Below are positions 3,842 through 61,245 of a stretch of DNA of 64,000 nucleotides, piece by piece (the first letter of the stretch is position 1; each line of letters begins with the position of its first letter). Location: IMG/VR virus record IMGVR_UViG_3300047159_000049, one strand, 5' to 3'. Position numbers and translations under genes: made by a program. The DNA comes from a virus. Its lineage: Duplodnaviria > Heunggongvirae > Uroviricota > Caudoviricetes. The notes below the pieces were generated by a model that worked only from the letters and a program-made list of their open reading frames with translations, ran no database searches and was not told the DNA's origin.

Positions 3842-3891
3842 CCAAAAACGCCCCTCCGAACAACGTATTATTGATCGGAGGGACGTGTCCA

Positions 3892-4353
3892 ATGGCTGCA
3901 CCAACACCAGAAACTAAGCAATTCGAAGATTACTTCAAAGACGATTTAGACGCCATAAACTCGACCATTTCCGATATCGAGCTCTACAAGAAGGGCATCG
4001 ATGGACGAATCGGTTTGATGCAAGGCGCCGGATCAAGAGGAGGCGAGCATTATCTCACCGACCATTACAAGAACGCCATCGCATTGGAAACGATGAAGGC
4101 GACGTTGCTTGAGGATCGGTTCGAGATCCATAAGACCGTCATGGACTACGCAGTCAAAGCCACCGTCACAGGCGGAGGAGACAACGAGTCCGCGCTCATT
4201 TCCATCGCAAGGAACCTTTACAAGGCTCAGGTCGCTGATCTTAATTCGGCAAACGCCGTCATGAACTCCATAGGGCCAAACGGGATCGTCCCTCAAGCCG
4301 CCAATGGAGAAACAGCCGACGCCGCGATTGACAAGCGCCTCGATAAGAAGTAA
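3892..4353 (+). CDS. hypothetical protein
   Basis: ATG at 3892 is preceded by a GGAGGGA ribosome-binding site. The ORF ends before a terminator-like hairpin. Confidence 0.5.
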   Translation: MAAPTPETKQFEDYFKDDLDAINSTISDIELYKKGIDGRIGLMQGAGSRGGEHYLTDHYKNAIALETMKATLLEDRFEIHKTVMDYAVKATVTGGGDNESALISIARNLYKAQVADLNSANAVMNSIGPNGIVPQAANGETADAAIDKRLDKK

Positions 4354-5556: not shown

Positions 5557-7596
5557 ATGGGCAAGAAGATAGGCACTCTGATCAAGTCGTTTAAAGGCAG
5601 ACGAAAGTCTTCGTCTGGAGCCGAATATGACACGATTCTTTTGATCTATCGGGATGAGAACGGCGTCAAGAAGACGTTGTTTTATGACCGGCCAGAGGTA
5701 TCGTATTACATCATCAAGGACAAGGAATCCCCAGAGGCGATCAAGCCTCCGATGTACATCGAGAACTATAAGGTCCAGGAAGTTAAGGTTTACAGCGATC
5801 TTCTTCTAAGAGACATCGCTTCGAAAACCAACGCGCTCGGTTTCTATGAAGCGGTAGCCACCACCAAAGGCATCTACTCTTATGACATGCACAACATCTT
5901 CAAGCATCCGTGGATCTATGGAGCGGATATGGATCTCAGCGACAGATACATCGCCAAGTTCCAAAATGAGTATGATCCAGATCCAAACTATAAACTTCAC
6001 AAATGCTATTTCGATATCGAGGTAGATCTCATGCCGAACGGATTCCGCGATAACGGATTCTCAGGTTTCCCAGACGAAGACGTCGCGCCATGCCCGGTCA
6101 ACGTCATCACCCTTATTGATGGCAAATTCAAAAAGATCTACACGTTTGTCAATCATAATCCTCTTAACAAATCTCTTGAGGAATTCGCTGGAGATCTGCA
6201 GGGATTTCAGAAAGACATGGCGGACCAAATTTTCAAAGAAGACAATTTGAAGCTTGATGTCAACGTCATAATGTGCGAAGGAGAGCTCAATACGATTGAG
6301 GCGTTCTTCAAGAAAATCCACGAAATAGATCCAGATTACGTCCTTGGCTGGAACTGCAACTTCGATATCATCACTTTGATCAATCGGCTCAGATATCTTT
6401 ATCGCAAAGTCGAACGCCCGGCAGGAGTTACTGCTGATCAAATGATGCTTGAGATGGTCTGTGACTCAAAATACGCGCATCAGAAAGCGGCCGACGGAGT
6501 CACCGATGTCTGGATCTCTCCTCGGGCTTTCTACCAAAAGAACGAAACCAAGAAGATCGGGTCTCGGCTTGATAACTTCATGGTGCTTGATGGCATCAAC
6601 TGGGAAGACCAGATGCTTTATTATGCGGTCATTCACTTCAGCGAAGGAAAACGCGATAGCTATAGACTAGACGCGATCGCCAACTTCGAGTTGAAGAAAG
6701 AGAAGCTCCCGTTCGCCCCAGGCGAAACCGTCAAGAATCTTCCTTGGAAGAACTTCCGCAAATTCACGAACTACAACATGCACGACGCCTTGCTTCTTCT
6801 CATGATCGAAGACAAGACTCTCGATATCGATCTTCTTCAGACGCTTTCCGAGATTACCAACACCCGCAAGGAAAAGGTATTCTCAAAGTCCATCTCGCTG
6901 CCGAACTTCATCAACAAGTATTCCATCGAGAACGGATTCATCATGAGCGGCAACAAGAATGCCGATTATGGCGATTATGGCAAGGTCTACGACACCGACT
7001 ATCGCGATGTGTCCCCTATCGTGGACAGCGATCCGGCATACACCGCCCAGATCAATCACGCCGACAAATACGGCGCGCTCGTCTCCGATCCTAACCTCAA
7101 TGAGCCTGTTGGCATGATGATGCCAAGCGGCAAGAGATCGAACCGCGTGTTCGAGAACGTCTGCGACCAAGACCTCTCATCTCTGTACCCTTCGATCCTT
7201 CGCACGCTCAATCTTGATTCCAGCACCGAGATCGGAAAGTTCATCCTCGTCGATGACGCGATCAAGTCCAATCTCAAGAAGAAGTATGGATACAGCGGCT
7301 TGTTCAAGCTCAGCGAGAAAGACGACGGAGCCGGCCAGATCGACGACGTTTCCGTTCCAGGAGAGGATGAATCGGCCGCTTCGGATGACACATCCGAAGA
7401 CGACAGCGACATTCTGTCCGACGACAAAGGAAGCTTCGCCGAGACCAGCGACTTGGGCCCGACGCTGTCAGACGAGATCGAAAGCCAGAACTGGTGCCGC
7501 CTCGGAGAGAAGTACATGTTCCTTCCGTCCGTCGACGACAACATCAAGAAAGTCGCCTCGATCATCGCGGCAAGAAAAGCGGAGGCCGGTAAATGA
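5557..7596 (+). CDS. family B DNA polymerase, exonuclease domain plus motif A; motifs B and C not found in this ORF
   Basis: ExoI YFDIEVD, ExoII WNCNFDI, ExoIII YNMHDALL, motif A DQDLSSLYPSIL. The C-terminus is acidic low-complexity, then a stop. Confidence 0.75.
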   Translation: MGKKIGTLIKSFKGRRKSSSGAEYDTILLIYRDENGVKKTLFYDRPEVSYYIIKDKESPEAIKPPMYIENYKVQEVKVYSDLLLRDIASKTNALGFYEAVATTKGIYSYDMHNIFKHPWIYGADMDLSDRYIAKFQNEYDPDPNYKLHKCYFDIEVDLMPNGFRDNGFSGFPDEDVAPCPVNVITLIDGKFKKIYTFVNHNPLNKSLEEFAGDLQGFQKDMADQIFKEDNLKLDVNVIMCEGELNTIEAFFKKIHEIDPDYVLGWNCNFDIITLINRLRYLYRKVERPAGVTADQMMLEMVCDSKYAHQKAADGVTDVWISPRAFYQKNETKKIGSRLDNFMVLDGINWEDQMLYYAVIHFSEGKRDSYRLDAIANFELKKEKLPFAPGETVKNLPWKNFRKFTNYNMHDALLLLMIEDKTLDIDLLQTLSEITNTRKEKVFSKSISLPNFINKYSIENGFIMSGNKNADYGDYGKVYDTDYRDVSPIVDSDPAYTAQINHADKYGALVSDPNLNEPVGMMMPSGKRSNRVFENVCDQDLSSLYPSILRTLNLDSSTEIGKFILVDDAIKSNLKKKYGYSGLFKLSEKDDGAGQIDDVSVPGEDESAASDDTSEDDSDILSDDKGSFAETSDLGPTLSDEIESQNWCRLGEKYMFLPSVDDNIKKVASIIAARKAEAGK

Positions 7597-11227: not shown

Positions 11228-13297
11228 ATGGCAAAGAAATACTTAGTCTTAGTCGAGTCTCCAGGCAAGGTTCACAAGATATCTCAGATCCTTGGGCCGA
11301 ATTACAACGTTCAGGCGTCGATCGGGCATATCGCCAGGATCGCCGACAGCGGAAAATACAGCCTCGGCATCAACGTGGACAAAGACTTCGAGATGGATCT
11401 TGAAGTCGATCCTAAGAAAGCCGAAGTCGTCAAGAGCCTGCGCTCAGCCGTCAAGAACGCCGACATCGTCTATCTGGCATCCGACGCCGACCGCGAAGGG
11501 GAGATGATCTCCTATTCGCTTAAGCGCTTCCTTCAGATCCCCGATGAGAAAGCGAAGAGAATAACTTTCACCGAGATCACCGAATCGGCCATCAAGGAAT
11601 CAGTCAAGAAGCCAGGCGTCATAGACGACAACATGGTCGAAAGCGCCATGACGCGCATGAGCCTTGACAAGATCATAGGATACCGCCTGTCCGGAGTCGT
11701 TCAGCGCAAGCTATGCTGCAAATCGGCAGGCCGCGTCCAATCGGCAGGACTGAAGATCCTGTGCGACAGGGAGAATGAGATCAAGGCATTCGTCCCCGTT
11801 CAATATTTCGAGCTGTATCTCCCGTTTGATAAGAATGGCGTCATATACGAAGCCAAATACCGCGGAACTGACGCCAAGCGCATGTCGACGTTCAAGAGCC
11901 GAGACGACGCGATCGCCGTCATGAACGAATGCAAGCCCGGCAACTACAACGTCGGAAAGATCGAAAGCTCTGACAGAGTCGTCAAATCAAAGCTTCCGTT
12001 CACGACAAGCACGTTTCAGCAGGATTGCTCGTCGAAGCTAAACTACACTCCGAAGAAAGCCATGGAGATCGCCCAGAAGCTGTATGAGCAAGGGTTCATT
12101 TCGTACATGAGAACCGACGCCGTCAGATTCTCCGACGAATTCATCGAAGCCGCCAAGAACAAGATCGTCGGCGAGTTCGGGAGCCAATACTACACCGGGC
12201 TCCGCATCCCGAAGGATCAGAACAAGGATGCCCAGAACGCGCATGAATCGATTCGCCCGACGCACATCGAAGACACCCCCGAAGCGCTGGCCCTCAAATT
12301 GGACTCGGAGCAATTCAACGTCTATAAGCTCATCTATTCCAGATCTCTGGCGGCTTTGATGGCCGATGAGATCATGACGGATCTCGAAACCTCGATCTAT
12401 AACGGGGCCAACAGATTCTCGTTCATCGCGCACTCTGTCAAGTTCGACGGATTCGCCAAAGCCTACAATTACACCGATCCGGACGAGGAAGACGCCAAGT
12501 TCCCGGTCATGTCGATGAATGAGCATGTCAAAGACGGTCCGCTTCGGCTAGACGAGAAATCGACTAACCCGCCAGCCAGATACACGGAAGCTGGGCTCGT
12601 CAAAGCCCTCGAGGATTCCGGCGTTGGCCGCCCATCGACATACGCGACGATCATCGGCGTTCTCAAAGACGCCGCCAGAGGATACACCGAGATGGTAGGC
12701 AAAACGATGAAGCCGACAGACAAGGGTCTGCTTCTGTCAAAATTCCTCGACGATCATTTCTCAGACATCATCTCCCTCGAATACACGTCAGAGATGGAAT
12801 CCAAATTGGACGAGATAGCCGGAGGCAAAGCCACCCGCGTCCCGACGCTGAAGGATTTCTACGGCAAGTTCGATCCTGAGATCAAAGCCGTCAAGGACAT
12901 CGAGGTCGAAGGCCGCCCCGTCGTCGAGAAAGTCGAAGGCCGCAAATGCCCGCTGTGCGGACACGATCTCGTCTATCGCAACGGCAGATACGGCAGATTC
13001 ATAGCCTGCTCAAACTACATGAGAGGCCACTGCAAGTACACCGAGCGCCTGGATGCCAATGGCAACCCCATCCCGTCAAGCGCCAGCGACAAGAAGCCAG
13101 CCCCGGAAAAGACCGGGTTCAAATGCCCTAAATGCGGAGGCGACGTCATCAAGCGCCATTCCGCCAAGACCGGCCAGGACTTCTACGGATGCTCAAACTA
13201 CCCGAAATGCCATCAGGTATGGTCTCAGGCATCCTTCGATGAGACGTTCAAAGGCGCCAAGAAGAAAATAAATAAAATTTCCGTCGATAAAGACTAA
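11228..13297 (+). CDS. type IA DNA topoisomerase (TopA/Topo III-like) with C-terminal zinc ribbons
   Basis: Toprim LVLVESPGKVHKI. Active-site region GFISYMRTDAV. Two Cys4 ribbons (CPLCG...CSNY, CPKCG...CSNYPKC). Confidence 0.85.
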   Translation: MAKKYLVLVESPGKVHKISQILGPNYNVQASIGHIARIADSGKYSLGINVDKDFEMDLEVDPKKAEVVKSLRSAVKNADIVYLASDADREGEMISYSLKRFLQIPDEKAKRITFTEITESAIKESVKKPGVIDDNMVESAMTRMSLDKIIGYRLSGVVQRKLCCKSAGRVQSAGLKILCDRENEIKAFVPVQYFELYLPFDKNGVIYEAKYRGTDAKRMSTFKSRDDAIAVMNECKPGNYNVGKIESSDRVVKSKLPFTTSTFQQDCSSKLNYTPKKAMEIAQKLYEQGFISYMRTDAVRFSDEFIEAAKNKIVGEFGSQYYTGLRIPKDQNKDAQNAHESIRPTHIEDTPEALALKLDSEQFNVYKLIYSRSLAALMADEIMTDLETSIYNGANRFSFIAHSVKFDGFAKAYNYTDPDEEDAKFPVMSMNEHVKDGPLRLDEKSTNPPARYTEAGLVKALEDSGVGRPSTYATIIGVLKDAARGYTEMVGKTMKPTDKGLLLSKFLDDHFSDIISLEYTSEMESKLDEIAGGKATRVPTLKDFYGKFDPEIKAVKDIEVEGRPVVEKVEGRKCPLCGHDLVYRNGRYGRFIACSNYMRGHCKYTERLDANGNPIPSSASDKKPAPEKTGFKCPKCGGDVIKRHSAKTGQDFYGCSNYPKCHQVWSQASFDETFKGAKKKINKISVDKD
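13261..13282 (+). repeat. AT-motif copy
   Basis: Encodes the last residues (KKINKIS) of the topoisomerase. Confidence 0.55.
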
Positions 13298-26505: not shown

Positions 26506-28770
26506 ATGACCTCTCCGATCGATGACGATGTCAACAGCATCTTCAACGAATTCATGGTGAAGTTCGCGTGCGATTATGGCCATACCACGATCGGCACTCA
26601 GCATCTTTATCTTGGAGTCATGGCTTTCTTAAACAAGCACTCCGGATCCGGAGACAAATACAGCGATCTGTTCGGCAAAATGCAAGCGATCCTTTCCAAG
26701 TACGGAATGTCGGATCTCGCTTTCGCCACGGCGATGTTCAGCATCTATCCGAAGTGCCATATCATCGATCCAAGCACCGATCCTGAGATGAGCTCTGACA
26801 ACGATATCCAGACCATTGTCTCAAAGCTTCAGCGCCAAGCGATCAAAGAGAGCCGAACGCTTGGGGTTCCGAATCTCATGATCCAGCTCTTCGCCGACAG
26901 CGACAAAGCTCCGTTCAATCTCAGAAAGATCTTCATCAAGGCTTTCACCGATACGAAGCGGCCGGAGAAAGTCCAGAGCATGTACGATGAATTCATCGAG
27001 ATGTTCAAGCCCGACGCCGAGACCAAATCGAGCAATCAAGGAATCGCTGATATCTGCGAGAAAACCGATTTCCTCACCGACATCAACGCTCTCGTAGCCG
27101 ATTGTCCGCATTCGATCGTCGGCGGAGACGATCTCATCAAGTCGATCTCGGTCGGCCTGATCGGAAAGAACAAACGCAGCGTCGTGCTCACTGGCATGGC
27201 CGGCGTCGGAAAGACCGAGGCGGTGTATGACTTGGCTCAGCGCATCAATGCTGGCAAAGCCCCTTCCGCCATCAACGTCAAGCATATCTATCGTCTCAAT
27301 CTCGATAAGATCTCCGCTGGCGGAACCTATCCCGGCATGATCGAAGGCCGCCTTGGCGTCGTTCTCGATGCCGCGGCCGCAGACCATAATTCGATCTTGT
27401 TCGTCGATGAGGCTCAGTATCTGTTCACCATCGCAGAGATGGGATCTCCGATCATCAGCATCATCAAGCCGTATCTTTCCGATGGAAGCGTGTCAATGAT
27501 CATGACGATCACCGACAGCGATTTCCACAAATACTTCTCCAAGGACAGCGGGTTCTCCCGCCGGCTTCGCGAGATCCATGTGAAAGAGCCGTCTGACGAA
27601 GACACCAAGACCATCCTGCTTGGCATCCGCGGCGACAAAGACAAATTCTATGGCATGACGCTCTCCGACGACATCGTCAGCGAGATCGCGACATTGTCGA
27701 AGAAATACTCGCTCAACAAAGCAAATCCTGATAAGTCGATCGACATGATGGACCTCGCTTATTCTTATGCGAAGGTCACTCATCCGGCAGACAAGAACGT
27801 CACCAAAGACGATTTGGTCGACGCCATCACGCAGCAATACGGAATCCACGTCTCGAAGGACAATGCCACCGAGACCGAGAAAGCGCTGCATGAGAAGCTG
27901 CTCGGGCAAGACGAAGCGATCAATCAGATCGCCTGGTCTCTCAGAACGATCGATCTTGGTTTGTACAATCCTGAGAAGCCGATGCTCTCGATGCTCTTCG
28001 CCGGACCGACCGGAGTCGGCAAAACCGAATCCGCCCGCATCATCGCGAAGAACTATTTCGGCAAGTCCGATGCGCTCATCAAACTGAGCATGGGCGAATA
28101 CGCGGATGAGATCAGCTACAACAAGCTCATCGGCTCCGCTCCTGGCTATGTCGGCTATGATGACGACACCGGCCTGCTCGCAAGCATCAAGCGCAATCCG
28201 TGCTCGCTCGTTCTCTTCGATGAGATCGAGAAGGCGCATCCGAAAGTGCTCAAGACCTTGCTCAGCATGCTCGACGACGGCATCGTGAATGACTCTCATG
28301 GCGACGAGGTTTCGTTCCGCAACGCCATCATCGTGTTCACGACAAACCTCGGATACGATTCAGAATCGACCAATACGAGCGGCATGGGCGAGATCAAGGT
28401 CATGGACGACAAGCACGACGCTGAGATGGCGATCACCAAGTACTTCCCGCCTGAGTTCAAGGCGAGAATCAACAAAGTGGTCATCTTCAACCGTCTTGAC
28501 GATCGCGTGTTCGACTCGCTGATCAAGAGATACCATGAGATGTATGAGACGCTCTCCGGAGGCAAGGTCAAAGTGGCCTTCACCAAAGAAGACATCGACG
28601 CGATCAAGGTCGCTGCCGACATCGAGAACAAAGGAGCCCGCGGGCTTGACGAGGCTGTTCGCAGCCAGATCCAGACCGCATATGAGCGCCAGATCTCCGA
28701 AACGGCTAAGCTCTTCGCGGCGTCTAAGCTGGCCACGGCGTCCAAAGCCACGGCCAAGAAAGGTAAGTGA
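26506..28770 (+). CDS. ClpA/ClpC-like double AAA+ unfoldase
   Basis: Clp-N-like IGTQHLYLGV. D1 GMAGVGKTEAV...ILFVDEAQ. D2 FAGPTGVGKTESAR...LVLFDEIEKAHP. Confidence 0.8.
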   Translation: MTSPIDDDVNSIFNEFMVKFACDYGHTTIGTQHLYLGVMAFLNKHSGSGDKYSDLFGKMQAILSKYGMSDLAFATAMFSIYPKCHIIDPSTDPEMSSDNDIQTIVSKLQRQAIKESRTLGVPNLMIQLFADSDKAPFNLRKIFIKAFTDTKRPEKVQSMYDEFIEMFKPDAETKSSNQGIADICEKTDFLTDINALVADCPHSIVGGDDLIKSISVGLIGKNKRSVVLTGMAGVGKTEAVYDLAQRINAGKAPSAINVKHIYRLNLDKISAGGTYPGMIEGRLGVVLDAAAADHNSILFVDEAQYLFTIAEMGSPIISIIKPYLSDGSVSMIMTITDSDFHKYFSKDSGFSRRLREIHVKEPSDEDTKTILLGIRGDKDKFYGMTLSDDIVSEIATLSKKYSLNKANPDKSIDMMDLAYSYAKVTHPADKNVTKDDLVDAITQQYGIHVSKDNATETEKALHEKLLGQDEAINQIAWSLRTIDLGLYNPEKPMLSMLFAGPTGVGKTESARIIAKNYFGKSDALIKLSMGEYADEISYNKLIGSAPGYVGYDDDTGLLASIKRNPCSLVLFDEIEKAHPKVLKTLLSMLDDGIVNDSHGDEVSFRNAIIVFTTNLGYDSESTNTSGMGEIKVMDDKHDAEMAITKYFPPEFKARINKVVIFNRLDDRVFDSLIKRYHEMYETLSGGKVKVAFTKEDIDAIKVAADIENKGARGLDEAVRSQIQTAYERQISETAKLFAASKLATASKATAKKGK

Positions 28771-28775
28771 TCGTT

Positions 28776-29456
28776 ATGTCAAAGCCAGTTATGGAAGGAT
28801 ACGAGCCTGAACAGCAGGCCGTCACATTCCAAGATTCTATCGCGACTTCCTTGTATAAGGATCGTGTTGTTCTGCTTTACGGCGAGGTGTCGGAGCAATC
28901 CGCCAGCCTCGTCATCGCGGAGCTCAAGAACCTCAGCAAGAAAGATCCAAAGAAGCCTATCGAGCTCGACATCATGTCGGGCGGAGGCGATATCACGGCA
29001 GGGCTCGCCATCGTCGATCAGATGATGGAGATCCAAGCGCCGATCATCACGGTCTGCAAAGGCTTCTGCGCCTCGATGGCGGCGGTCATCTTCTCGAGCG
29101 GCGATTACCGGCTCGTTCAGAAACACGGGTTCGTCCTGATCCATCAGGGCCGCACGTATCATCAGAACGAAATGGAGACCGTCCTCGACGCCGATGCCAG
29201 CCAGAAGATGATGCACATGCTCAATGACGCATGCCTCAATCTCTTGGCGGACAACTCCGGCAAGACCTATGAGCAGATCAACGCCGACACCCAGCGCGAC
29301 AACAACATGTCCGCCGAAGAGACCGTCAAATACGGTTTGGCCGACGCGGTCATGGAGTATGGCAAGCCGCTCGTCTTCAACAGCGACGACGTGTCTAAGC
29401 TCCGCAAGCGATACGTCCAGAATGCCGAGCGCAAAGCCAAGCAGTCTGGGAAATAA
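28776..29456 (+). CDS. ClpP-family serine peptidase
   Basis: GFCASMAA (Ser), VLIHQG (His) and a downstream Asp in the ClpP arrangement. Confidence 0.7.
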   Translation: MSKPVMEGYEPEQQAVTFQDSIATSLYKDRVVLLYGEVSEQSASLVIAELKNLSKKDPKKPIELDIMSGGGDITAGLAIVDQMMEIQAPIITVCKGFCASMAAVIFSSGDYRLVQKHGFVLIHQGRTYHQNEMETVLDADASQKMMHMLNDACLNLLADNSGKTYEQINADTQRDNNMSAEETVKYGLADAVMEYGKPLVFNSDDVSKLRKRYVQNAERKAKQSGK

Positions 29457-31361: not shown

Positions 31362-32669
31362 ATGACAGCATTGATCTGCACGATCGTGTTCGGCGTCCTG
31401 TTATTGGTCGCCGGGCTGATCGCAGCCATTTATCTGTACAATCGTTCTAAAGAAGACGCCGAGGATTCCAGCGGCAACACGCTCGTGTCCATGGCCGAAG
31501 AGGAATACGCCAAGGTCTATCCCGGCAATCCCATCAAGACATACGGCAACAAATACACAGCCGATTTCGTCAAGTTCTACAAAGGATACAAGAATTCCGC
31601 CGCCGCCAAGAAGAACGCCCCGAAGGGAAATAAAAAATATTTCGGCCTCGCGTTCGTCTGGCTACTCATCGGGATCATCCCGCTCTGCAATTCGTTCACC
31701 AAGGTCGGCCCGAATGAGGTCGGCATCGTTTACGATGAGCTGAACGGAGGCATCCAGGACTGGACTTATGGCGAAGGATTCCATTCCAAGTCTATCTTCC
31801 AGCACGTCACGACGATCCCAACCACCAACGTCGTCGTTCATCTCGAGAGCAACGAGACGAAGAACGACAGCCTAACCTGCCAGACGATGGATGGCCAATA
31901 CGCCAGCCTTGAGATCAGCCTGATCTATCACATCACCAAAGACAACGCCCAGTCGTTCTATCGCATCACGCAAGCGAGCAAGATGCCGGAGGACGCGATC
32001 AAGTCGATCATCAAGAACGTGATGAAGGAAGTCACGCCCCAATACACCATCTTCGAGCTTCTTTCGACGAAGTTCAACGACGCCAACTCCCAATTCCAGA
32101 CGAAATTCATCGTCGCCATGAAAGAGCAATACTACGTCACCGTCACCAATGCGTCGCTTGACGACATCGACGCCGGATCCGAGATCGAGGCGATCCTGAA
32201 GAAGGAAGCCGAGGCGAAGAAGCAGATCGAGATCGCTCAGGAAGAGGCCCAGGCCGCCGGCATCAAAGCCGCGTCAGACGCCGCCGTCCAGAGAACGCTC
32301 GCCGACGCAGACGCCTATGCGACCACCGTCAAAGGCAAGGCCGCAGGAGACGCTTCCGCGGCTTACATCAAATCCGTTGAGTCGATGATCAACCGGCTGT
32401 ACTGCTCCGTCAACGGAGTGGCCGACGCCGACATCGTCGTCGACAAGGACGGCTACGTCACATCGTTCAAGCCGGTCGAATCGTCCAAGGAGACGCTCAC
32501 TTATTCCAAGTGCGCCAATCTTATCCTTGGCATCATCTTCTATGATACCTGGGACGGCAAGCTCCCGGAAGTTCTCACCTCCGATCAGCTCAGCGCCCTC
32601 ATCGGATCGCTTCTCGCCAACGGAGCGTCGAGCTCTTCGAGCACCAGCTCCAGCTCGGCAGGAGCCTGA
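31362..32669 (+). CDS. SPFH/band-7 (HflK/C-like) membrane protein
   Basis: N-terminal TM helix. KVGPNEVGIVYDELNGGIQDW...LEISLIYHI SPFH pattern. Confidence 0.6.
   Translation: MTALICTIVFGVLLLVAGLIAAIYLYNRSKEDAEDSSGNTLVSMAEEEYAKVYPGNPIKTYGNKYTADFVKFYKGYKNSAAAKKNAPKGNKKYFGLAFVWLLIGIIPLCNSFTKVGPNEVGIVYDELNGGIQDWTYGEGFHSKSIFQHVTTIPTTNVVVHLESNETKNDSLTCQTMDGQYASLEISLIYHITKDNAQSFYRITQASKMPEDAIKSIIKNVMKEVTPQYTIFELLSTKFNDANSQFQTKFIVAMKEQYYVTVTNASLDDIDAGSEIEAILKKEAEAKKQIEIAQEEAQAAGIKAASDAAVQRTLADADAYATTVKGKAAGDASAAYIKSVESMINRLYCSVNGVADADIVVDKDGYVTSFKPVESSKETLTYSKCANLILGIIFYDTWDGKLPEVLTSDQLSALIGSLLANGASSSSSTSSSSAGA
31625..31645 (+). repeat. AT-motif copy GGGAAATAAAAAATATTTCGG
   Basis: Intragenic (SPFH gene), encodes GNKKYFG. 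Confidence 0.6.
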
Positions 32670-34030: not shown

Positions 34031-37000
34031 ATGGAAACAGCCGAGCTGAAAGTAGTCAAAAGAGACGATAGCGTCGAGGATTTCGATATCAAGAAGATCG
34101 AACGCGCCATTGCGCGCGCCTGCCAGGAGACCCATGACGCGGAAGGCGAGAAGAACGCCAGCATCGTCGCCGAGAAGGCCCTGGACGAGTTCTCCGGGAA
34201 AATAAAAAATAATTCCGTCGGGATCGAAGACATCCAGGACGGGGTCGAGCTCGCGCTCATCGACACGGGCCACAAGCAGACCGCTTTGGCATACGCCAGA
34301 TACCGCGAGAAGCACGCCCAGATGAGAAACGGGCTGAACTACGGGAAGCTCGTCGACGACTACCTCGGCCAGAACGACTGGCGCGTCAAGGAAAACGCAA
34401 CCGTCAACTTCTCGCTCGGAGGGCTCGTGCTCTCGAACAACGGAGCGGTCACTGCCAACTATTGGCTCAACGACATCTACGACAAGGAAATCGCCGACGC
34501 GCACAGAAACGCGGATCTTCACCTGCATGACCTTAGCTTATTGAACGGTTATTGCGCAGGCTGGTCGCTCAAGCAGTTGATCAACGAAGGCCTCGGCGGA
34601 GTCCCGGGCAAGATCGCGTCTACCCCGGCTAGCCATCTTTCGACTCTCTGCAACCAGATGGTCAATTTCTTGGGCTGCTTCACCGACGATACCAGAATCG
34701 TGTTCGCCGATGGGACTAATCACAGCATCCGCGAGATGCTCGATTCAGGAAAGACAGAATTCATGGTCAGGTCATTCGATCCCAACACCGGCAAATACGT
34801 CGCGTCGAAGATGGATAACTTGCATAAGACGAGAACCGTTAGTCAGCTCATTGAGCTCACGACCGAAGACGGCCATAAGATCAAATGCACTCTTGACCAT
34901 AAATTCTATACGCTTAACCGTGGATGGGTTGAGGCGCAGGATTTAACCGAAGACGACGACGTCCTTCAATACAACTCAAAGGTTATGTACGTGTACAAAT
35001 TCACTTGCAAAGACACCGGAGAGTGTATGAAAATCGTATCTAAGAGAATTATCAATCAGACATCCGATGTTTATTGCGGAACCGTCCATAACGATTTTCA
35101 CGCATTCTTCGTAACCGATTCGGAATCATCAGACACCAGTATCTGTGCGAGAAATTGCCTACAAAATGAATGGTCGGGTGCTCAGGCGTTCTCGAGCTTT
35201 GACACGTACCTGGCCCCGTTCGTCAAGAAGGACAATCTGTCATACAAAGAAGTTAAGCAAGCCATTCAGAGCTTCATCTTCGGTGTCAACACCCCGTCCA
35301 GATGGGGCTGTGTCGACACGGACACCGAAGTGCTGTCGACCGGTGGATGGAAGAAATACGATCAGCTTAAAAAAGGCGATGACATTTACGTTTGGGACAA
35401 TGGGACGCTGACGACCAAAAAGGTCAACGAAGTCGTCGTGAAACCGTACAAAGGCGAGATGCACCGCTATCTTGGAGCCGGATACGAGCAAACCGTCACA
35501 CCTGAGCACCGTATTCTTGTCAAAAAATTCAATTTGAACGAATACGAAATCAAACATTCGTCTGACATTTTCAGTGTCAAGACTTCTTATTACCTCCCAG
35601 CATCTTTTTCGGGCAACGATTTGCCTGAATGCGGGGCTGAGCGATGACGAGATAAAACTGGCGGCGATGGTCTATACCGATGGAAGCATAGACGTAAGAA
35701 ACGGATCGATTCACAAAATAACGATATACAAATCTCCGAAAAGGCCAGGAAACGCCGACATCGCAAATGTGGCAAATTCGCTTTCTCTAGCTTTTTCGCT
35801 TTGCGAAGTAAAAGGCGGGTTTGATACTCCAGTAAATAAATACGTCTTCTTCGGTGACTCAGCAAGAAAGATTTTCGAACTCGTTGGCGGAACCAAAAAA
35901 GCCATTGATGACAAGTTCGTCAAAATGAGCAGAAGGCAATCGGAGCTGTTCCTTAGAACGTGGTCGAGTTTCGACGGAGATTTCGAAAAATTCAAACTTC
36001 AGTACGACAATGACGAAATAGCGGACAGGCTTCAAGAAATAGCATTGAGAGCCGGATTTTTGAGTTTCAAGAAAAAGACGAGTAAAGCGAACTACGTCCG
36101 CGTTCATGACGTCAAAAACATCCAGCCAAAACATAGGGAAGCCATTCAATATGACGGTCTTGTATGGTGTCCGAACGACGACGCCGGAACAGCCATTTTC
36201 AGAAAGAACGGATGCGTTTTCATTTCAGGACAATGCCAAGCGCCATTCACGAACGTCACGCTCGACTGGGTCGTTCCTGACGATCTGAAGAACCTGCCTG
36301 CCGTTGTCGGAGGCAAGATGCAGGACTTCACGTATGGCGAATGCCAGAAAGAAGCCGACATGGTCAACAAGGCCTTCATCGAAACGATGATCGAAGGCGA
36401 TGCCAATGGGCGCGGCTTCCAATACCCGATTCCGACTTACTCCATCACCAAAGGCTTCGACTGGTCCGATACCGAGAACAACCGTTTGCTGTTTGAGATG
36501 GCGGCCAAATACGGCATCCCGTATTTCTCAAACTACATAAATAGTTCGATGAATCCTCAAGATTGCAGGAGTATGTGCCCTTTGACGTCAGACACCGAGA
36601 TTCTCGTCAAAAACTCGCGTGATGGAATCGTCGTCAGAAAGATAGGAACTCTTTATGATGGATACAATCTCAAGAAAACGAACTATCTTTTCTGGAATGG
36701 GCATAAATGGGTGTCAGGCCATCCGGTTCAGATGCCGATGACACCGGTTTTCAAAATCGTCCTTTCGAACGGAACGACCGTCAAAATGGGCGAAAACCAT
36801 CTTCAGCCGACAAAGGATAGAGGAACGTTGAAAGCGAGCGATCTCGAAGTCGGCGACTGGCTTCCTTTCAACAAGACCCCGATTGAGACGGAAAGGCTCG
36901 GTGATTCCGACCTCGGTTTTGCGATAGGTGCTTACGCAGGAGACGGAAGTCACGACGAAGGAGCAGTTGTTTATTCTCTTAATGTCGATGTCGATCAAGA

Positions 37001-39830
37001 CACGGTTTCGCGCCTCACGGCTTTCTGGAACAGAGTAGGCTATCCGGTGAAAACGACGGTTTCCGAAAAAGTGGAATATGTCAGAGTCGATAAGAACCCG
37101 TTCGCCATTGTGTCGGAATACATCGATGGCGATGCTTTGACGAAGAAGCTTTCCAATCGTTGTTTCAATGCTTCGAACGAATTCAAAGAAGGATTCATAT
37201 CGGGTTTGAGAGCCAGCGATGGGTCGAAGGAGAAAAAGAGGATATACACTTCATCGGAAACGATGAAAAACGATGTGATGAAACTTTTGGCATCCATGGG
37301 GCACAAAGCTTTGTCAAACTACGTCGACAACAGAGAAAGTCGCTTATCCGACAAGCCGAATTACAGAATTGACTTCCCGGATCGCGAGCGCTATGGCGAG
37401 CTTTTCGATCAAGACGATTCCTACAATTATTACAAGATAGTGTCGATAGAGAAAACCAATGACGCATCAAGTGATTTTCTTTACTGCTTGGAGATAGACA
37501 GCGACGATCATGTTTTCGCTTTGGCATCAGGTCTCATGACTCACAACTGTCGTCTTCGCCTCGATCTTCGCGAACTGCGCAAGCGCAACGGCGGGTTCTT
37601 CGGAGCCGGAGAATCCACTGGCAGTATCGGCGTCGTCACCATCAACATGCCGCGCATCGGCTACCTCGCCGCCGACAAAGACGACTTCTACGCCCGGCTC
37701 GACCACATGATGGACATCGCCGCCCGCTCGCTTGAGATCAAGCGCAAAACAATCACCGACCTCTATAACCGTGGCCTCTATCCGTACACCAAGCGCTATC
37801 TGGGCGAAACCGCGTTCAAGAACCATTTCTCGACGATCGGCCTCGTCGGCATGAACGAAGCCTGTCTCAACGCCAAATGGCTGAAAGACGACCTCACGCA
37901 CAAGGACGCCCAGGACTTCACCGTCGAGGTCCTCAATCACATGCGCAACCGGCTATCTGACTACCAAGTCCAGTATCCATCGACACTTTTCAACCTTGAA
38001 GCGACGCCGGCGGAGTCAACGTGCGTTTCAGGAGACACCAATGTTTGGACTGATAAAGGCCGTATGACCGTCAACGATATCATCGCCGATAAAAATAAAA
38101 ATATCGGCATCATGTCATTCAACGCCGAAACCAACTCAGTCGAGTTCAAGAAGCTCGTCGACTGCTGGAAGACGAAGAAAGACGCCGAAGTGATGAAGAT
38201 CACCTTCTCCAATGGCGACAGCGTCAAAGTCACGCCTAACCATAAGATGGCGAAGCGGTTCGTCACCGGATGCGGTCCCAGTCGCAAATGCTGGATCGAT
38301 TACGTCGAAGCCGGATCCTTAAAAGTCGGAGACAGATTATTCGCGTGCCATGTTTATACTAAGAATTCTAAAGCATATGGAGAAACGTATCGCAATGTCG
38401 AATGCGTACTTGGCAAAAATAAAGGATCTTTCCCGATGCATCGTCTTCTAGCTGAATATTACTATGGCAAGATCCCAGACGGATTCGTAGTCCATCATAA
38501 GGATTTCGACAAGACCAACAACGCCAAAGACAACCTTGAGATAATGTCGGATGCCGATCACCGCCGGCTGCATGAGCATGACGAAGGCCGTAATTTTGTA
38601 AGATGCGTAGACGGCTCCGCCAACCCATTCTTCGGCAAGCATCACACCGAAAAATCAAAAGAGCTTATTTCCGAGACGAAGAGGGAAACCAAAGACGAAT
38701 GGTATCCTAAGTTCCTTGAGAACATGGCATCCGAAGACACCCGCAGAAAGATGTCTGAAGGGAATAAGAAAAAGAGCTTCGAGCAGTATTCGAGATACAT
38801 GCCGGAATGCTCAACCGAAGCCATAATCGCTAAATGGAAGGAAAACAAGAGCATCGGCGAAATCGCCAAAGAGCTCGGAGAGCCTTACACTTACTCGCTC
38901 GTCAAATCGCGCCTGAAGCATGCCGGCCTGCTTCCAAACCATCAGATCGTCAAGATCGAATACCTCACCGAGAGGGAAGACGTCTACGATCTCGAAGTCG
39001 AAGGCAACCACAACTTCTTCATCAGCGGCGGCGTTGACGACGCGGTGCTGGTGCACAACTGCTTCCGCCTCGCCAAGCACGACAAGGAAATGTATCCCGA
39101 CATCATCACCGCCGGCAAATCCGGCGAGACGCCTTACTACACCAACAGCTCGCACCTCCCCGTCGGATACACCGACGACATGTTCAGCGCGCTTGACGTC
39201 GAGGACCGCTTCCAGACCCTATACACCTCCGGTACCGTCTTCCACGCCTTCCTCGGGCAGCGTCTGCCCGACTGGCATTCGTGCATGAGGCTCGTCCGCA
39301 AGATCGCGGAGAACTACAAGCTGCCGTACTTCACCATGTCGCCGACCTATTCCATCTGCCCCGACCACGGCTACATCGTCGGCGAGAAATGGAAGTGCCC
39401 GATCTGCGGCAAGGAGACCGAGGTCTACAGCCGCATCACCGGATACTACCGCCCGCTCAAGAACTGGAACGCCGGCAAGATGCAGGAGTTCCATGACCGC
39501 AAGGAATACGATTCCTCGAAAGAGGAAGTCCATGACGGATGCAACGCCTGCTCCCTGGAAAATAAAAATATTTCCGCCGAGGCGCCCAAAGTCGATCATC
39601 TGATGCTGTTCACCAACCCGACGTGCCCGAACTGCAAGATGGCGAAGATGCTGCTCGACAAAGCCGGGATCAAGTACGACAACATCGACGCGTCGACGCA
39701 TCTCGACCAGGTCAACGCGTTCGGCATCACCGCCGCCCCGACGATGATCGTCCCGGATGGGGCCTCGTTCGACGTCTACAGAAACGCCTCGGAGATCGCC
39801 GGATGGATAAAATCGCGCTCCAACGCGTGA
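34031..39830 (+). CDS. nrdD: anaerobic ribonucleotide reductase NrdD with ATP-cone, four inteins and a C-terminal glutaredoxin/NrdH-like domain; apparent +1 frameshift near 35.6 kb
   Basis: Extein strings NQMVNFLG / LQNEWSGAQAFSSFDTYLAPFV / NTPSRWG / QAPFTNVTLDW / RSM|CRLRLDLRELRKR / FNLEATPAEST|CFRLAKHD. Zn ribbon CPDHG...CPICG. Glycyl-radical RITGYYRP. CPNC redoxin domain at the C-terminus. Confidence 0.9.
34195..34215 (+). repeat. AT-motif copy GGGAAAATAAAAAATAATTCC
   Basis: Intragenic in the NrdD ATP-cone, encodes GKIKNNS. Confidence 0.7.
34676..35155 (+). mobile_element. intein 1 in NrdD (mini-intein, about 160 aa)
   Basis: Cys start after NFLG. Internal TVHN. Ends ...ICARN followed by Cys and the extein LQNEWSGAQAF. 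Confidence 0.6.
35309..36233 (+). mobile_element. intein 2 in NrdD (LAGLIDADG type; C-terminal boundary uncertain; contains the frameshift)
   Basis: Starts RWG|CVDTDTEV. LAAMVYTDGS motif. Extein resumes at CQAPFTNVTLDW. Confidence 0.55.
35574..35647 (+). other. frame change (+1) between two NrdD ORFs inside intein 2
   Basis: Two ORFs overlap here in different frames. The second frame carries the LAGLIDADG motif. A T5 run lies at about 35604-35608. Confidence 0.6.
36576..37547 (+). mobile_element. intein 3 in NrdD (double LAGLIDADG)
   Basis: RSM|CPLTSDTEILV ... LGFAIGAYAGDGS ... FISGLRASDGS ... LMTHN|CRLRLD. Confidence 0.8.
38022..39059 (+). mobile_element. intein 4 in NrdD (HNH endonuclease type)
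   Basis: AEST|CVSGDTNVW ... HHKDFDKTNNAKDNLEIMSDADHRRLH ... VLVHN|CFRLAKHD. Confidence 0.8.
38088..38108 (+). repeat. AT-motif weak variant
   Basis: Inside intein 4, encodes DKNKNIG. Confidence 0.3.
39557..39575 (+). repeat. AT-motif copy, palindromic GGAAAATAAAAATATTTCC
   Basis: At the junction of the NrdD core and the redoxin domain, encodes ENKNIS. Confidence 0.7.
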
Positions 39831-58713: not shown

Positions 58714-61245
58714 TCACTTCGAATGTGAATATTTTTGTTTTTCCGGAATCCTTGAGAACAGATTATCCATAGTGAAGTACACGACAGGCATCGCCAGAAC
58801 GCTGATCAAAATCATCAGCCAATCCCCGCTGGATAATGCGCTAAGCGTTCCTCCGAGATCGAATATCTTTGAGAACGCGTCATAGTACGCGCCATCTATT
58901 TTTATAACCCATAAATGCATTACGCCATCGGATGCGATTTTGAAAAGGCTGGTAGAGCATCCGCCAAACGCGCTGAGAGGAAGGAACATCGAGTATATCA
59001 CGGCCCCAGCCATGTTGCCGATGAACACTCCGGACCTATATCCGTTCATAGGAACGCTTATGCGGAACAGAACCATGAACGACGCTATCGAATAAAGCAT
59101 GCAGATCAGAGTTTTGTCTTTCATCGTCGGAGCGACTATGCTCCATGTCTGCCCGCCCGAAAGCCATATCTTTCCAACAAGAACCGACCCGGCAAGCAGC
59201 AACGCGGCCGGTATCGCTCGCACCATGATATTGCGTTTGAATGATCCTGAAAGCCTTTCCTGGCAAGGCTCGACCGACAGGAAGAACGAGGCGATCCCGA
59301 TGACGAATGTCTCCATCAAGGCAAGATTTTCCATCTCGAGAGGGAAATAATAAAATAATCCGCACAGCGTCATTATCCCAAGAAGCATCATCGAGAAAGT
59401 CTTCATCAGGAACAAAGTTGAAGTCCTGGTTATGTTGTTGACGACTCTGCGCCCTTCGCCTATAGCAGCCGGAAGATCATCGAAATTAGAATCGATGAGA
59501 ACGATGTTGGAAACCGCTTTGGCGGCATCCGCCCCTCCGGCCATGGCGACCGAGCAATCCGCTGTCTTCAGAGATATGACGTCATTGACCCCGTCTCCGG
59601 CATACGCCACTTTATGGCCTTGCTTCTGAAGAGCCTTGATGATCTTAGCCTTCTGCTCCGGGCTAACGCGCCCAAACACATTGAAATCCGCCGCCATCTG
59701 AGGGATATCCTCATCTCGGATCCCCTCCATAGAAACCGCCTTGTCCCAATCTGGGACTCCGGCTTCTTTGGCGATCTGCGACACGGTTGATGGATTGTCG
59801 CCAGAGATGATCTTGACGCTGACGGAATTGTCTTTGAACCATTTCATCGTGCTGATGACCGCTGGCCTGACGCCATCCCTAAGCACTATGAGAGCCAGCG
59901 GATCGATGTCAGCCGATCTGTCCTCTCCTTGCGGCTGCAGGCTTCCATGGCGCCTTGCGAACAAGACGACCCGAAGCCCTCTGGAAGCCAGCTTCGCGTA
60001 TTCTGAAAGTATGATAGAATCCCCGGTGATATATTCCGGCGCTCCCAAAACGTAAATGAATCCGTCAGGCATCCCGGCAGAAGACGTCTTCCTGTCGCTG
60101 GAGAACTCAAGCACTTCCTGAGCCGTCATCGACCCTACGGATCCGAACTGAGCTATCAGAGCGGCTGACGTCGCGTTGCTCGTCTTGAATGAGCCGATGA
60201 AAGATGACAGAAGATCGACGAGCTGATTGTCTTTGACCTTTCGGCTGAGGCTGATTATGGAATCAACCTTCATATGCCCGTCCGTAAGGGTTCCCGTCTT
60301 GTCGAACGCGACGGTGTCTACCCTGGCCAGCATCTCGATGGAATACATGTCCTGAACGAGCGCTTTCTTCGACGCTAATTTGATTATTCCGACGGCAAGC
60401 GCTATGGACGTAAGGAGAATCATCCCTGAAGGAATCATGCCGACCATCATGGTCCCTGTCGGGATTATGACGTCGGACTCAAACGAAGTCGTGTACGCCG
60501 CCGGCATCCCGTTGGTAAGCCAAAGCTTAAGCCCCAGGGCGAATCCGAGCGGGACGATGATGCACGCCAGAACCTTGAGCAGCCACATGATCGTGGTCAT
60601 CAGCTCAGACTTGGCTCTCTTGAATTCCTTGGCTTTGTTTTGGATGCCGGACGCGTAAGTCGATTGCCCCACGGCCGTAGCCACGATGGAGCATGACCCC
60701 GAAATGATGAACGACCCGGCAAGAACCTTAGCCCCGGATTCCTTCTTTATGGCGTCGGCCTCTCCGGTGAGAAGCGACTCATTGGCTTCGGCGCTTCCGT
60801 CGATGACGTCTCCGTCGACAGGGATCTGATCGCCAGATCTCAGAATGACGACGTCTCCCAAAACGATGTCGTCGGAATTTATTTTTATTTCCTTCCCGTC
60901 TCTGCGAACAGATGCCTTAGATGAGCACACTATCGACAGCTTCTCTACGGCTTTCTTTGACCTGATTTCCTGGATGATTCCGATTGCCGTATTGAGGACA
61001 AGATTGATGCAGAATCCGTATTTCGACCAGTCATCCACCCCGAACACGAGGAAGCATATGGCTATGCCGGCAAGCAACGCGTTGAAGAATGTGAACACGC
61101 TGTCCCTGATGATATCCCAATAGGACTTCGAGCATTTCTTGTTGGTGACGTTTGCCAATCCATCTGACTTAAGCTGAGCGGCTTTCTCAGACGTAAGCCC
61201 CTGCGAACGGCTGTCGACGATCTTTGCATTTTGGTGTGTTTTCAT
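58714..61245 (-). CDS. P-type cation-transporting ATPase (P2-like)
   Basis: DKTGTLT, TGEADAI, GDGVNDV motifs. N-terminal GLTSEKAAQLKSDG. Multiple TM segments. Confidence 0.85.
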   Translation of the reverse strand: MKTHQNAKIVDSRSQGLTSEKAAQLKSDGLANVTNKKCSKSYWDIIRDSVFTFFNALLAGIAICFLVFGVDDWSKYGFCINLVLNTAIGIIQEIRSKKAVEKLSIVCSSKASVRRDGKEIKINSDDIVLGDVVILRSGDQIPVDGDVIDGSAEANESLLTGEADAIKKESGAKVLAGSFIISGSCSIVATAVGQSTYASGIQNKAKEFKRAKSELMTTIMWLLKVLACIIVPLGFALGLKLWLTNGMPAAYTTSFESDVIIPTGTMMVGMIPSGMILLTSIALAVGIIKLASKKALVQDMYSIEMLARVDTVAFDKTGTLTDGHMKVDSIISLSRKVKDNQLVDLLSSFIGSFKTSNATSAALIAQFGSVGSMTAQEVLEFSSDRKTSSAGMPDGFIYVLGAPEYITGDSIILSEYAKLASRGLRVVLFARRHGSLQPQGEDRSADIDPLALIVLRDGVRPAVISTMKWFKDNSVSVKIISGDNPSTVSQIAKEAGVPDWDKAVSMEGIRDEDIPQMAADFNVFGRVSPEQKAKIIKALQKQGHKVAYAGDGVNDVISLKTADCSVAMAGGADAAKAVSNIVLIDSNFDDLPAAIGEGRRVVNNITRTSTLFLMKTFSMMLLGIMTLCGLFYYFPLEMENLALMETFVIGIASFFLSVEPCQERLSGSFKRNIMVRAIPAALLLAGSVLVGKIWLSGGQTWSIVAPTMKDKTLICMLYSIASFMVLFRISVPMNGYRSGVFIGNMAGAVIYSMFLPLSAFGGCSTSLFKIASDGVMHLWVIKIDGAYYDAFSKIFDLGGTLSALSSGDWLMILISVLAMPVVYFTMDNLFSRIPEKQKYSHSK
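59342..59361 (+). repeat. AT-motif copy GGGAAATAATAAAATAATCC
   Basis: Intragenic in the P-type ATPase (encodes GLFYYFPL). Confidence 0.6.
60875..60892 (-). repeat. AT-motif copy GGAATTTATTTTTATTTCC
   Basis: Intragenic in the P-type ATPase (encodes KEIKINS). Confidence 0.6.

Follow-up and report, generated by a model that had tools for sequence, protein, structure and literature searches.

Class 3 inteins are among the closest described systems for the most interesting element of the locus analyzed here. They are defined by Trp at block position B:12, Cys at F:4, and Thr at G:5 (the WCT triplet), usually with Ser or Thr as the initial downstream extein residue (+1), and their prototype, from the DnaB protein of mycobacteriophage Bethlehem (MP-Be), begins with Pro (Pro1) (PMC2807308). 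Some members depart from this pattern. Bvi IcmO, the sole member of class 3 carrying Cys+1 known as of 2016, still depends on Cys F:4 (PMC5222942), and AceL NrdHF, with Met for Trp (MCT), is a functional class 3 intein (PMC7891396). Of the 1702 class 3 inteins counted in a census of 2020, about 6% deviate from Trp, NCT being found three times and QCT being absent (PMC7891396 and its supplement). The link between class 1 and class 3 is disputed; Beyer et al. (2020) failed to interconvert the classes and proposed a separate origin for class 3. The locus described here lies at positions 34031-39830 of virus record IMGVR_UViG_3300047159_000049 (the window, that is, the whole 64,000-nucleotide stretch of DNA that was analyzed), in which the gene for a class III ribonucleotide reductase (RNR), nrdD, carries four inteins, numbered here in their order along the gene. 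Intein 3 is the most interesting of them and was misread in the initial annotation: it begins with Pro, is class 3-like, and splits an essential Cys-Cys pair.

The gene is spread over two plus-strand open reading frames (ORFs), 34031-35647 (538 aa) and 35574-39830 (1418 aa), the second of which is in the +1 frame relative to the first. Pfam matches to the first ORF are ATP-cone (68.6 bits), NRDD, and Intein_splicing, and those to the second are NRDD (397 bits), Intein_splicing, HNH_3, NUMOD3, and Glutaredoxin (31.3 bits). As the alignment reference, we used the intein-less 802-aa NrdD-glutaredoxin protein encoded at positions 1647-4055 of the unannotated human-gut phage contig MT835493 (L001), which is the sole DNA-level relative of the window among GenBank phages and whose NrdD has the same C-terminal redoxin domain. 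The alignment showed that both ORFs together make up one NrdD-glutaredoxin fusion with four exact in-frame insertions. Removal of the insertions leaves a 795-aa NrdD with 521 positions identical to the reference and 0 gaps at all four junctions. This spliced sequence matches solved NrdD structures in the PDB (best E 6e-44) and contains all the class III RNR features, namely the NRDD domain, the SMCCRL finger-loop Cys motif, the CPxC Zn ribbon, and RITGY. The initial annotation had proposed that NrdD contains four inteins belonging to three architectures, and this is borne out: one mini-intein, two LAGLIDADG inteins, and one HNH intein are inserted without gaps, and their junctions could all be fixed against the intein-less reference.

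The insertions could also be recognized as inteins one by one. Against the Pfam Intein_splicing cut-off of 35.8 bits, inteins 1 and 4 score 49.8 and 67 bits, intein 3 stays below at 26.6 bits, and intein 2 has no match. AF2 models built with homologue alignments are of high confidence for both intein 3 (pLDDT 92.4) and the repaired intein 2 (pLDDT 91.2). In Foldseek searches, the top matches of the intein 2 model are the TliVMA, PhoVMA, PI-PfuI, and PI-SceI inteins (E 1e-14 to 1e-10), and the intein 3 model matches the TliVMA intein (E 9e-17, TM 0.71); for both, I-DmoI follows, matching the LAGLIDADG core. The Hint-domain character of the insertions is therefore supported by Pfam for inteins 1 and 4 and, for inteins 2 and 3, by structural placement with PI-SceI, PI-PfuI, and TliVMA, all of them inteins that contain an endonuclease. 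The block A spacing is C-x-x-x-D-T in inteins 1, 2, and 4 and P-x-x-x-D-T in intein 3. With respect to position 1, the C-terminus, and +1, the class 1 signature is complete in inteins 1 and 4, whereas intein 2 has Gln for Asn and intein 3 has Pro1. Cys is found at F:4 in inteins 1, 2, and 3; intein 4 alone has the commoner Asp. Collectively, the region very probably represents a single class III RNR gene of a large phage-like genome, the conserved sites of which were invaded independently by four mobile inteins. Once the frame is repaired, a 1932-aa precursor would be translated, each intein would excise itself post-translationally, and the five exteins would be joined into the 795-aa enzyme.

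Intein 3 (36579-37547, plus strand) is a 323-aa LAGLIDADG intein that runs from Pro to MTHN and is followed by Cys+1 (37548-50). Where the reference reads RSMCCRLRL, the window reads RSMC-(PLTSDTEILV...GLMTHN)-CRLRL, placing intein 3 between the two Cys residues of the CCR motif. The ASCCRL sequence of Thermotoga NrdD aligns to SMCCRL of the window, and in this "SCCR motif" of the Thermotoga enzyme both the C329A and the C330A mutants are inactive (PMC4493059). Because both CCR cysteines are conserved and are essential in Thermotoga, both can be assigned to the exteins, from which it follows that intein 3 begins with Pro. The initial annotation had set this boundary directly after RSM, with Cys as the first intein residue; that Cys is the essential extein residue, and the description of all four insertions as Cys-initiated thus applies to inteins 1, 2, and 4. 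The end that it had proposed for intein 3, THN followed by Cys, agrees with the reference alignment. The key residues are Pro1 (36579-81), Gly B:7, His B:10 (36798-800), and Gln B:12 (36804-06) of GENHLQ, Cys F:4 (37485-87, in FLYCLEI), and Thr-His-Asn at G:5-7 (37539-47). Two LAGLIDADG motifs, at 36912-50 (...YAGDGS) and 37182-226 (...RASDGS), were read directly, both with their acidic residues kept, the Pfam LAGLIDADG_3 match reaching only 20.2 bits.

A word-indexed protein search returned no relatives of intein 3, whereas an exhaustive HMMER search of 1.84 billion representatives returned 540, of which 196 are below 1e-10. The 102 matches covering both ends and the window together form a family table of 103 sequences. 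Pro1 is present in 43 of these (42 relatives and the window), and every one of the 43 has Cys F:4, Cys+1, and Thr-His-Asn, the last of which is nearly invariant across the table. Cys1 is combined with Cys F:4 in 45/103 and with Asp F:4 in 10/103. Trp at B:12 occurs in none of the 103 members, and the Pro1 members have Gln (22) or Asn (21) at this position. Pro1 and Cys F:4 are also kept in mini-inteins of 145-180 aa that occupy the same NrdD site without an endonuclease, and their retention in such endonuclease-free derivatives argues that splicing is selected. These mini-inteins (P0034, P0044, P0046, P0068, P0121, P0128, P0142, P0147, P0153, and P0161) are compact candidates for biochemistry.

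The GenBank phage relatives found for intein 3 all belong to the Cys1/Cys-F:4 type (Clostridium phages c-st and D-1873, a Desulfovibrio phage, and MT835492), and the Pro1 members are known here from metagenomes only. The NrdD intein of phages c-st and D-1873 (26% identity, E 1e-22) shares with intein 3 the site between the CCR cysteines, LAGLIDADG, Cys F:4, the Thr-His-Asn end, and Cys+1, but it has Cys1 and a Thr-x-x-His block B, whereas intein 3 has Pro1 and Gly-x-x-His-x-Gln. A midpoint-rooted neighbor-joining tree hinted at a nested series from Cys1 to Pro1; since the bootstrap for Pro1 monophyly is only 23/100, no direction of change between the two is claimed.

The presence of Pro1 makes the usual N-terminal thioester impossible, so intein 3 should follow a non-standard splicing route. 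By analogy with class 3, Cys F:4 would attack the Cys(-1)-Pro1 peptide bond, the N-extein would then be transferred to the second CCR cysteine (Cys+1), and Asn cyclization would finally free the intein. Several features are consistent with this route. Intein 3 has no nucleophile at position 1, and it shares Pro1 with MP-Be as well as Cys F:4, Thr G:5, His B:10, LAGLIDADG, and a phage context with class 3 inteins (a set that also includes Msm DnaBi1); Cys+1 is found in Bvi IcmO as well, and Trp is missing from AceL NrdHF too. The differences are a "QCT" triplet, Cys in place of Ser or Thr at +1, an NrdD host instead of a helicase or ATPase P-loop protein, and a sequence family that otherwise has Cys1-type members. 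No PDB class 3 intein is among the top 50 Foldseek structural matches of intein 3. Drawing on the analogy, we consider that intein 3 most probably works like a member of class 3 that lacks the full signature.

Some points count against this assignment. Trp B:12, which intein 3 does not have, is essential in the tested WCT inteins (PMC2807308, PMC5222942). Cys F:4 is common in class 1 inteins as well (PMC4031507), and the Cys1 relatives of intein 3 share it, so it is not proof of a class 3 mechanism. The same observations could be explained by the class 2 route, in which, as for KlbA inteins, Cys+1 makes a direct attack on the Cys(-1)-Pro1 amide and Cys F:4 is not the first nucleophile; Cys is the +1 residue of all Pro1 members, the class 3 Trp is absent, and Cys F:4, being shared with Cys1 relatives, may be ancestral rather than an adaptation. 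We consider this route an unlikely but serious alternative. Asp F:4 is confined to Cys1 members (10 of 57) and is never combined with Pro1 (0 of 43), Thr G:5 is conserved, and in the one tested intein that carries Cys at F:4 as well as at +1, Bvi IcmO, Cys+1 is no substitute for Cys F:4 (PMC5222942). A far weaker proposal, that intein 3 is an ordinary class 1 intein whose first residue is Cys 36576 and whose block A has one residue inserted, could appeal to the Cys directly before Pro and to three relatives (P0086, P0090, and P0123) that start one residue upstream with Cys1 (RSM/CF..THN/CCRL), but it is scarcely credible because the product would be RSM-CRL, lacking one of the two CCR cysteines, because those three relatives keep CC after the intein where the window keeps a single C, because the block A spacing fits Pro as residue 1, and because the same arrangement recurs in 42 diverged Pro1 relatives. 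In P0086, P0090, and P0123 themselves, the insertion point of the intein 3 family has slid one residue upstream, with both extein cysteines after the intein.

Returning to splicing through Cys F:4, we propose, tentatively, that intein 3 represents a large NrdD clade in which the N-terminal nucleophile has been lost (Pro1) and splicing proceeds via Cys F:4 without the class 3 Trp. No experimental study of the Pro1 NrdD inteins was found in the literature. If the proposal is true, the family, with its Cys1/Asp-F:4, Cys1/Cys-F:4 (phage c-st), and Pro1 members, would connect class 1 splicing with class 3 splicing in a natural series. The nucleophile is lost always in the presence of Cys F:4, and Cys1 relatives occur at the same site, which would provide constructs for addressing the origin of class 3; the family also offers a test of whether the Trp of WCT is dispensable. 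In addition, the clustering of the cysteines at -1, F:4, and +1 at the active site of an oxygen-sensitive enzyme raises the thought that splicing might be redox-gated, with NrdD maturing only under reducing, anoxic conditions.

Intein 2 (35309-36233, plus strand) starts with Cys1, ends with VFISGQ, and is followed by Cys+1 (36234-36), as placed by the reference alignment. Block B is TVTPEH (35492-518) and block F is VWCPN (36159-79). Two LAGLIDADG motifs, at 35658-87 and 35946-81, were read directly (...VYTDGS and ...SFDGD) with their acidic residues kept, and Pfam LAGLIDADG gave no match. The contrast drawn by the initial annotation between a LAGLIDADG intein 2 and a double-LAGLIDADG intein 3 accordingly falls away, as both have two motifs. 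Its remark that intein 2 seems to end in Gln holds, both by the reference alignment and by homologues. Eleven relatives with 39-60% identity were found, all in NrdD, and the site is SRWG/C wherever the N-terminal junction is present. The C-terminal junction can be read in eight homologues, of which seven end with ...ISGQ followed by Thr or Cys and one with ...ISGN, indicating that the terminal Gln is a family trait. The penultimate residue is Gly instead of His, and given this Gly-Gln end, the last splicing step would be glutamine cyclization, which is known as an alternative last step (PMC4031507, PMC8175363). Gln-terminated inteins such as Pab PolII and CIV RNR do splice (PMC4031507). Intein 2 resembles the Pyrococcus PolII inteins and the Chilo iridescent virus RNR intein in its Gln end, which is then followed by Cys+1, but it belongs to an unrelated sequence family and has Gly for the penultimate His.

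When the homologues P0018, P0036, P0040, and P0079 were compared, two registers lying two residues apart were seen. The first, G/C...GQ/(C or T)QAPF, has the Gln end as in the window; the second, GxQ/C...GN/(S or T)PF, lies two residues downstream and, unlike the Gln-terminated type, has a normal Gly-Asn end. The Gln terminus of intein 2 may have arisen with a shift of the site.

Intein 1 (34676-35155, plus strand) is a 160-aa mini-intein with Cys1, the end ...ICARN, and Cys+1 at 35156-58, supported by the Pfam score and the reference alignment. Its motifs are block B CTLDH (34886-909) and block F VYCGTV with Cys F:4 (35069-86). The ...ARN end, which the initial annotation had marked as lacking the penultimate His, is real by the reference alignment, with Arg as the penultimate residue, although its conservation could not be corroborated. 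Among PDB sequences, the NrdJ-1 split intein (8ubs, 6.5e-9) matches best, over the N-lobe. The relatives of the N-lobe are short metagenomic proteins that stop right after ...NRGWVEAQDLTEDDD (P0163-P0169, L004, and L005, compared with window positions 34676-34975), and they appear to be N-halves of split inteins in various host genes. In contrast to the NrdJ-1 and gp41-1-type split mini-inteins of phage metagenomes, to which its N-lobe points, intein 1 is contiguous (cis-splicing), lies at NFLG/C in NrdD, and has Cys F:4 and a divergent block G (SICARN). Its C-lobe, VYCGTVHNDFHAFFV...SICARN, contains Cys F:4, the block F His, and the Ala-Arg-Asn end. In close intein-less relatives, the residue that corresponds to +1 here is likewise Cys (L002 and P0013 both read NFLGCTQNEW).

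That all four inteins splice is our inference, and intein 1 is where the proposed maturation of NrdD is most exposed. No homologue was found for its C-lobe, including SICARN and a six-residue insertion, since its relatives cover the N-lobe only, and block G may be defective. It could then be argued that at least one intein, most plausibly intein 1, is splicing-dead, so that NrdD could not be made even after frame repair; Ala-Arg-Asn for x-His-Asn, SESSDT inserted before block G, and the C-lobe unsupported by homologues would all be in line with this. We regard such a defect as rather improbable. Cys1, Thr-x-x-His, the block F His, Asn, and Cys+1 are all present, leaving the penultimate His as the only difference, the Pfam score is above the cut-off, and the host gene is otherwise well conserved. 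Splicing of inteins without the penultimate His is also documented (PMC4031507). For maturation through four functional inteins, inteins 1, 2, and 4, which all have Cys1 and Cys+1, would follow the standard four-step class 1 pathway, with inteins 1 and 2 as tolerated variants.

Intein 4 (38022-39059, plus strand; 346 aa) extends from Cys1 to VLVHN and is followed by Cys+1 at 39060-62. Besides Intein_splicing, Pfam detects HNH_3 (51.2 bits; cut-off 24.8) and NUMOD3 (31 bits) in it, and together with the reference alignment this agrees with the earlier description of an HNH-containing intein ending in VHN before Cys. Block B is VTPNH (38223-49), HNH lies at 38487-573, and block F is VYDLEV with Asp F:4 (38982-39020). 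Judged by its residues (Cys1, Thr-x-x-His, Asp F:4, His-Asn, and Cys+1), intein 4 is a standard class 1 intein. A homologous HNH intein is found at the same NrdD site in P0054.

The frame change that separates the two ORFs lies inside intein 2, as had been noticed initially: its 925 nt amount to 308 codons plus 1 nt, and deletion of one base restores an open, stop-free precursor of 1932 codons, 59% of which is intein. ORF1 stops at TGA 35645-47, the frame of ORF2 is open from 35538, and both frames are open over 35538-35644. The change (+1, that is, one extra base or two missing) could be confined by profile scoring to 35599..35639 on the plus strand, a zone that includes T5 (35605-09), G3 (35611-13), and G4 (35633-36). 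When every single-base deletion was scored with a homologue profile hidden Markov model (HMM), a plateau of 474-479 bits was obtained across 35599-35639, with 476.6 bits for T5 and 478.2 bits for G4. Because the plateau is flat, the change is not assignable to T5, with which G4 fits equally well. The two frames and their overlap at 35574-35647 thus stand as initially annotated, and the T5 run is one of several equally good sites. Whether the break is an error or a mutation, the gene as sequenced is unable to make NrdD.

Downstream of the break, about 4.2 kb remain open with conserved exteins and intact intein motifs, and none of the other large genes of the window is obviously broken. These observations together point either to a homopolymer error left in the sequence or to a mutation of very recent origin. 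On balance, we lean toward a homopolymer sequencing or assembly error in the intein 2 linker. A genuine mutation, by which nrdD would be a freshly inactivated pseudogene with translation ending at 35645-47 after the N-lobe of intein 2, is a serious but less probable explanation. No second copy of the window DNA for comparison was obtained by exact-product look-ups with both ORFs, by exact-pattern scans of metagenome, genome, and viral contigs allowing either homopolymer length, or by peptide-seeded scans of viral contigs. In favor of a mutation, the absence of other obviously broken large genes indicates that the assembly is not error-ridden, the runs are short (T5, G3, and G4) and of a kind that short-read consensus seldom gets wrong, and nrdD is auxiliary, so a phage might survive its loss. 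Inactivation, however, would have to be very recent in view of the open and conserved 4.2 kb downstream, one residual homopolymer error per 64 kb is expected of a polished long-read assembly, and the nearest relative (L002) has an intact nrdD under its own genetic code.

Two readings in which the break is functional could be set aside more firmly than a mutation. In one of them, intein 2 is a natural split intein, with the N-extein and IntN on ORF1 and the endonuclease, IntC, and the remainder on ORF2, joined by trans-splicing; this is disfavoured and very improbable, for although the break lies at the junction of the Hint N-lobe and the endonuclease, the usual place for natural splits, although the ORFs overlap, and although fractured genes and split inteins are known in phage RNR genes (NrdJ-1; AceL NrdHF, PMC7891396), no Shine-Dalgarno (SD) sequence precedes GTG 35574 or ATG 35667 whereas most window genes, nrdD included, have one, the first LAGLIDADG helix encloses ATG 35667, the homologous sequence reads straight through both frames one base out of register, and every homologue of intein 2 is contiguous. 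In the other, equally hard to credit, programmed +1 ribosomal frameshifting or transcriptional slippage at T5 or G4 bypasses the frame change; the P-site tRNA would re-pair perfectly after a +1 slip at both runs (UUU_U and GGG_G), but the site has no SD-like stimulator upstream of it and neither a stop nor an evident hungry codon, polymerase would not slip efficiently on runs this short, and no homologue has a frame change here. A homopolymer error thus remains the favored reading of the break, and the five exteins are described below for the repaired gene.

The exteins, all on the plus strand, were delimited by the reference alignment together with Pfam (exteins 1 and 5) and PDB matches (extein 5). 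Extein 1 (34031..34675; 215 aa) holds the ATP-cone and the N-terminal part of NRDD and ends with ...MVNFLG; an SD-like motif, aggaagg, lies upstream of its ATG. Extein 2 (35156..35308; 51 aa) reads CLQNEWSGAQAFSS...NTPSRWG. Extein 3 (36234..36578; 115 aa) reads CQAPFTNVTLDW...QDCRSMC, its last residue being the first Cys of the CCR motif (36576-78), and extein 4 (37548..38021; 158 aa) reads CRLRLDLRELRKR...FNLEATPAEST. Extein 5 (39060..39830; 256 aa and the stop) contains the Zn-ribbon Cys residues, the glycyl-radical motif SRITGYYRP (39429-55), and a glutaredoxin/thioredoxin-like domain with CPNC (39624-35), where Pfam Thioredoxin was matched in addition to Glutaredoxin. The enzyme combines an N-terminal ATP-cone, a CCR motif of the Thermotoga type (SCCR), and a C-terminal redoxin domain, and these features suggest a class III RNR that depends on a redoxin. 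A tblastn search of the whole 64 kb detected no gene for an NrdG activase. The GC content is 46.5% in the inteins and 56.7% in the exteins, and GC at third codon positions (GC3) is 55-62% and 69-86%, respectively, all four inteins lying below the host gene. Homing endonucleases that appear intact are present in three inteins (LAGLIDADG in two, HNH in the third), which, together with the lower GC, fits horizontal acquisition by homing.

The RNR of Trichodesmium erythraeum is a B12-dependent class II enzyme. Its gene is like that of the window in carrying four inteins (Liu, Yang and Meng 2003; PMC2874743, PMC10710043), but it is a cyanobacterial chromosomal gene that also has group II introns, whereas the window encodes a class III RNR in a phage-like genome. 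Archaeal MCM is also reported with four inteins, and Prp8 of Anaeramoeba with five (PMC2874743, PMC10710043). Four inteins in one gene is thus rare but has precedent, and the initial view of such a set in an RNR gene as exceptional could not be upheld; the count equals the highest reported before the 2023 Anaeramoeba study with five in one protein. None of the 121 representatives that BLAST matched to the reference NrdD has more than three inteins, a number reached by four proteins. More useful than the count is the mixture, which sets the window apart from the Trichodesmium RNR: one polypeptide contains a standard HNH intein, a mini-intein in which the penultimate His is missing, an intein ending in Gln, and a Pro1 intein between two catalytically essential Cys residues. 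The locus also provides a lesson for annotation, as Pfam alone misses two of the four inteins and a word-indexed search misses a family of 540 relatives.

The surrounding genes fit a large phage. The window encodes a PolB-type exonuclease domain (5557-7596), a topoisomerase I-type protein (11228-13297), a ClpB-like AAA+ protein followed by ClpP (26506-29456), a Band 7/SPFH protein (31362-32669), and a P-type ATPase (58714-61245), as well as a head-tail joining protein; tRNA and Rfam scans of the 64 kb found none. Stop-codon reassignment in the window itself was tested and rejected, as there was no sign of it. The ClpB/ClpP pair is shared with the nearest relative, L002 (JGI 3300055294, Ga0554530_0006571), the nrdD of which (L002:3499-6870; also L003:2-2353) is one frame of 1123 codons that ends at TGA and contains TAG in frame three times, once at the conserved Gln of AGAQAF. 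The gene caller split this gene, and decay, which its fragmented look might suggest, was rejected, since a continuous frame with three TAG codons corresponds to stop-codon reassignment. Judging from this frame, the L002 phage apparently reads TAG as a sense codon.

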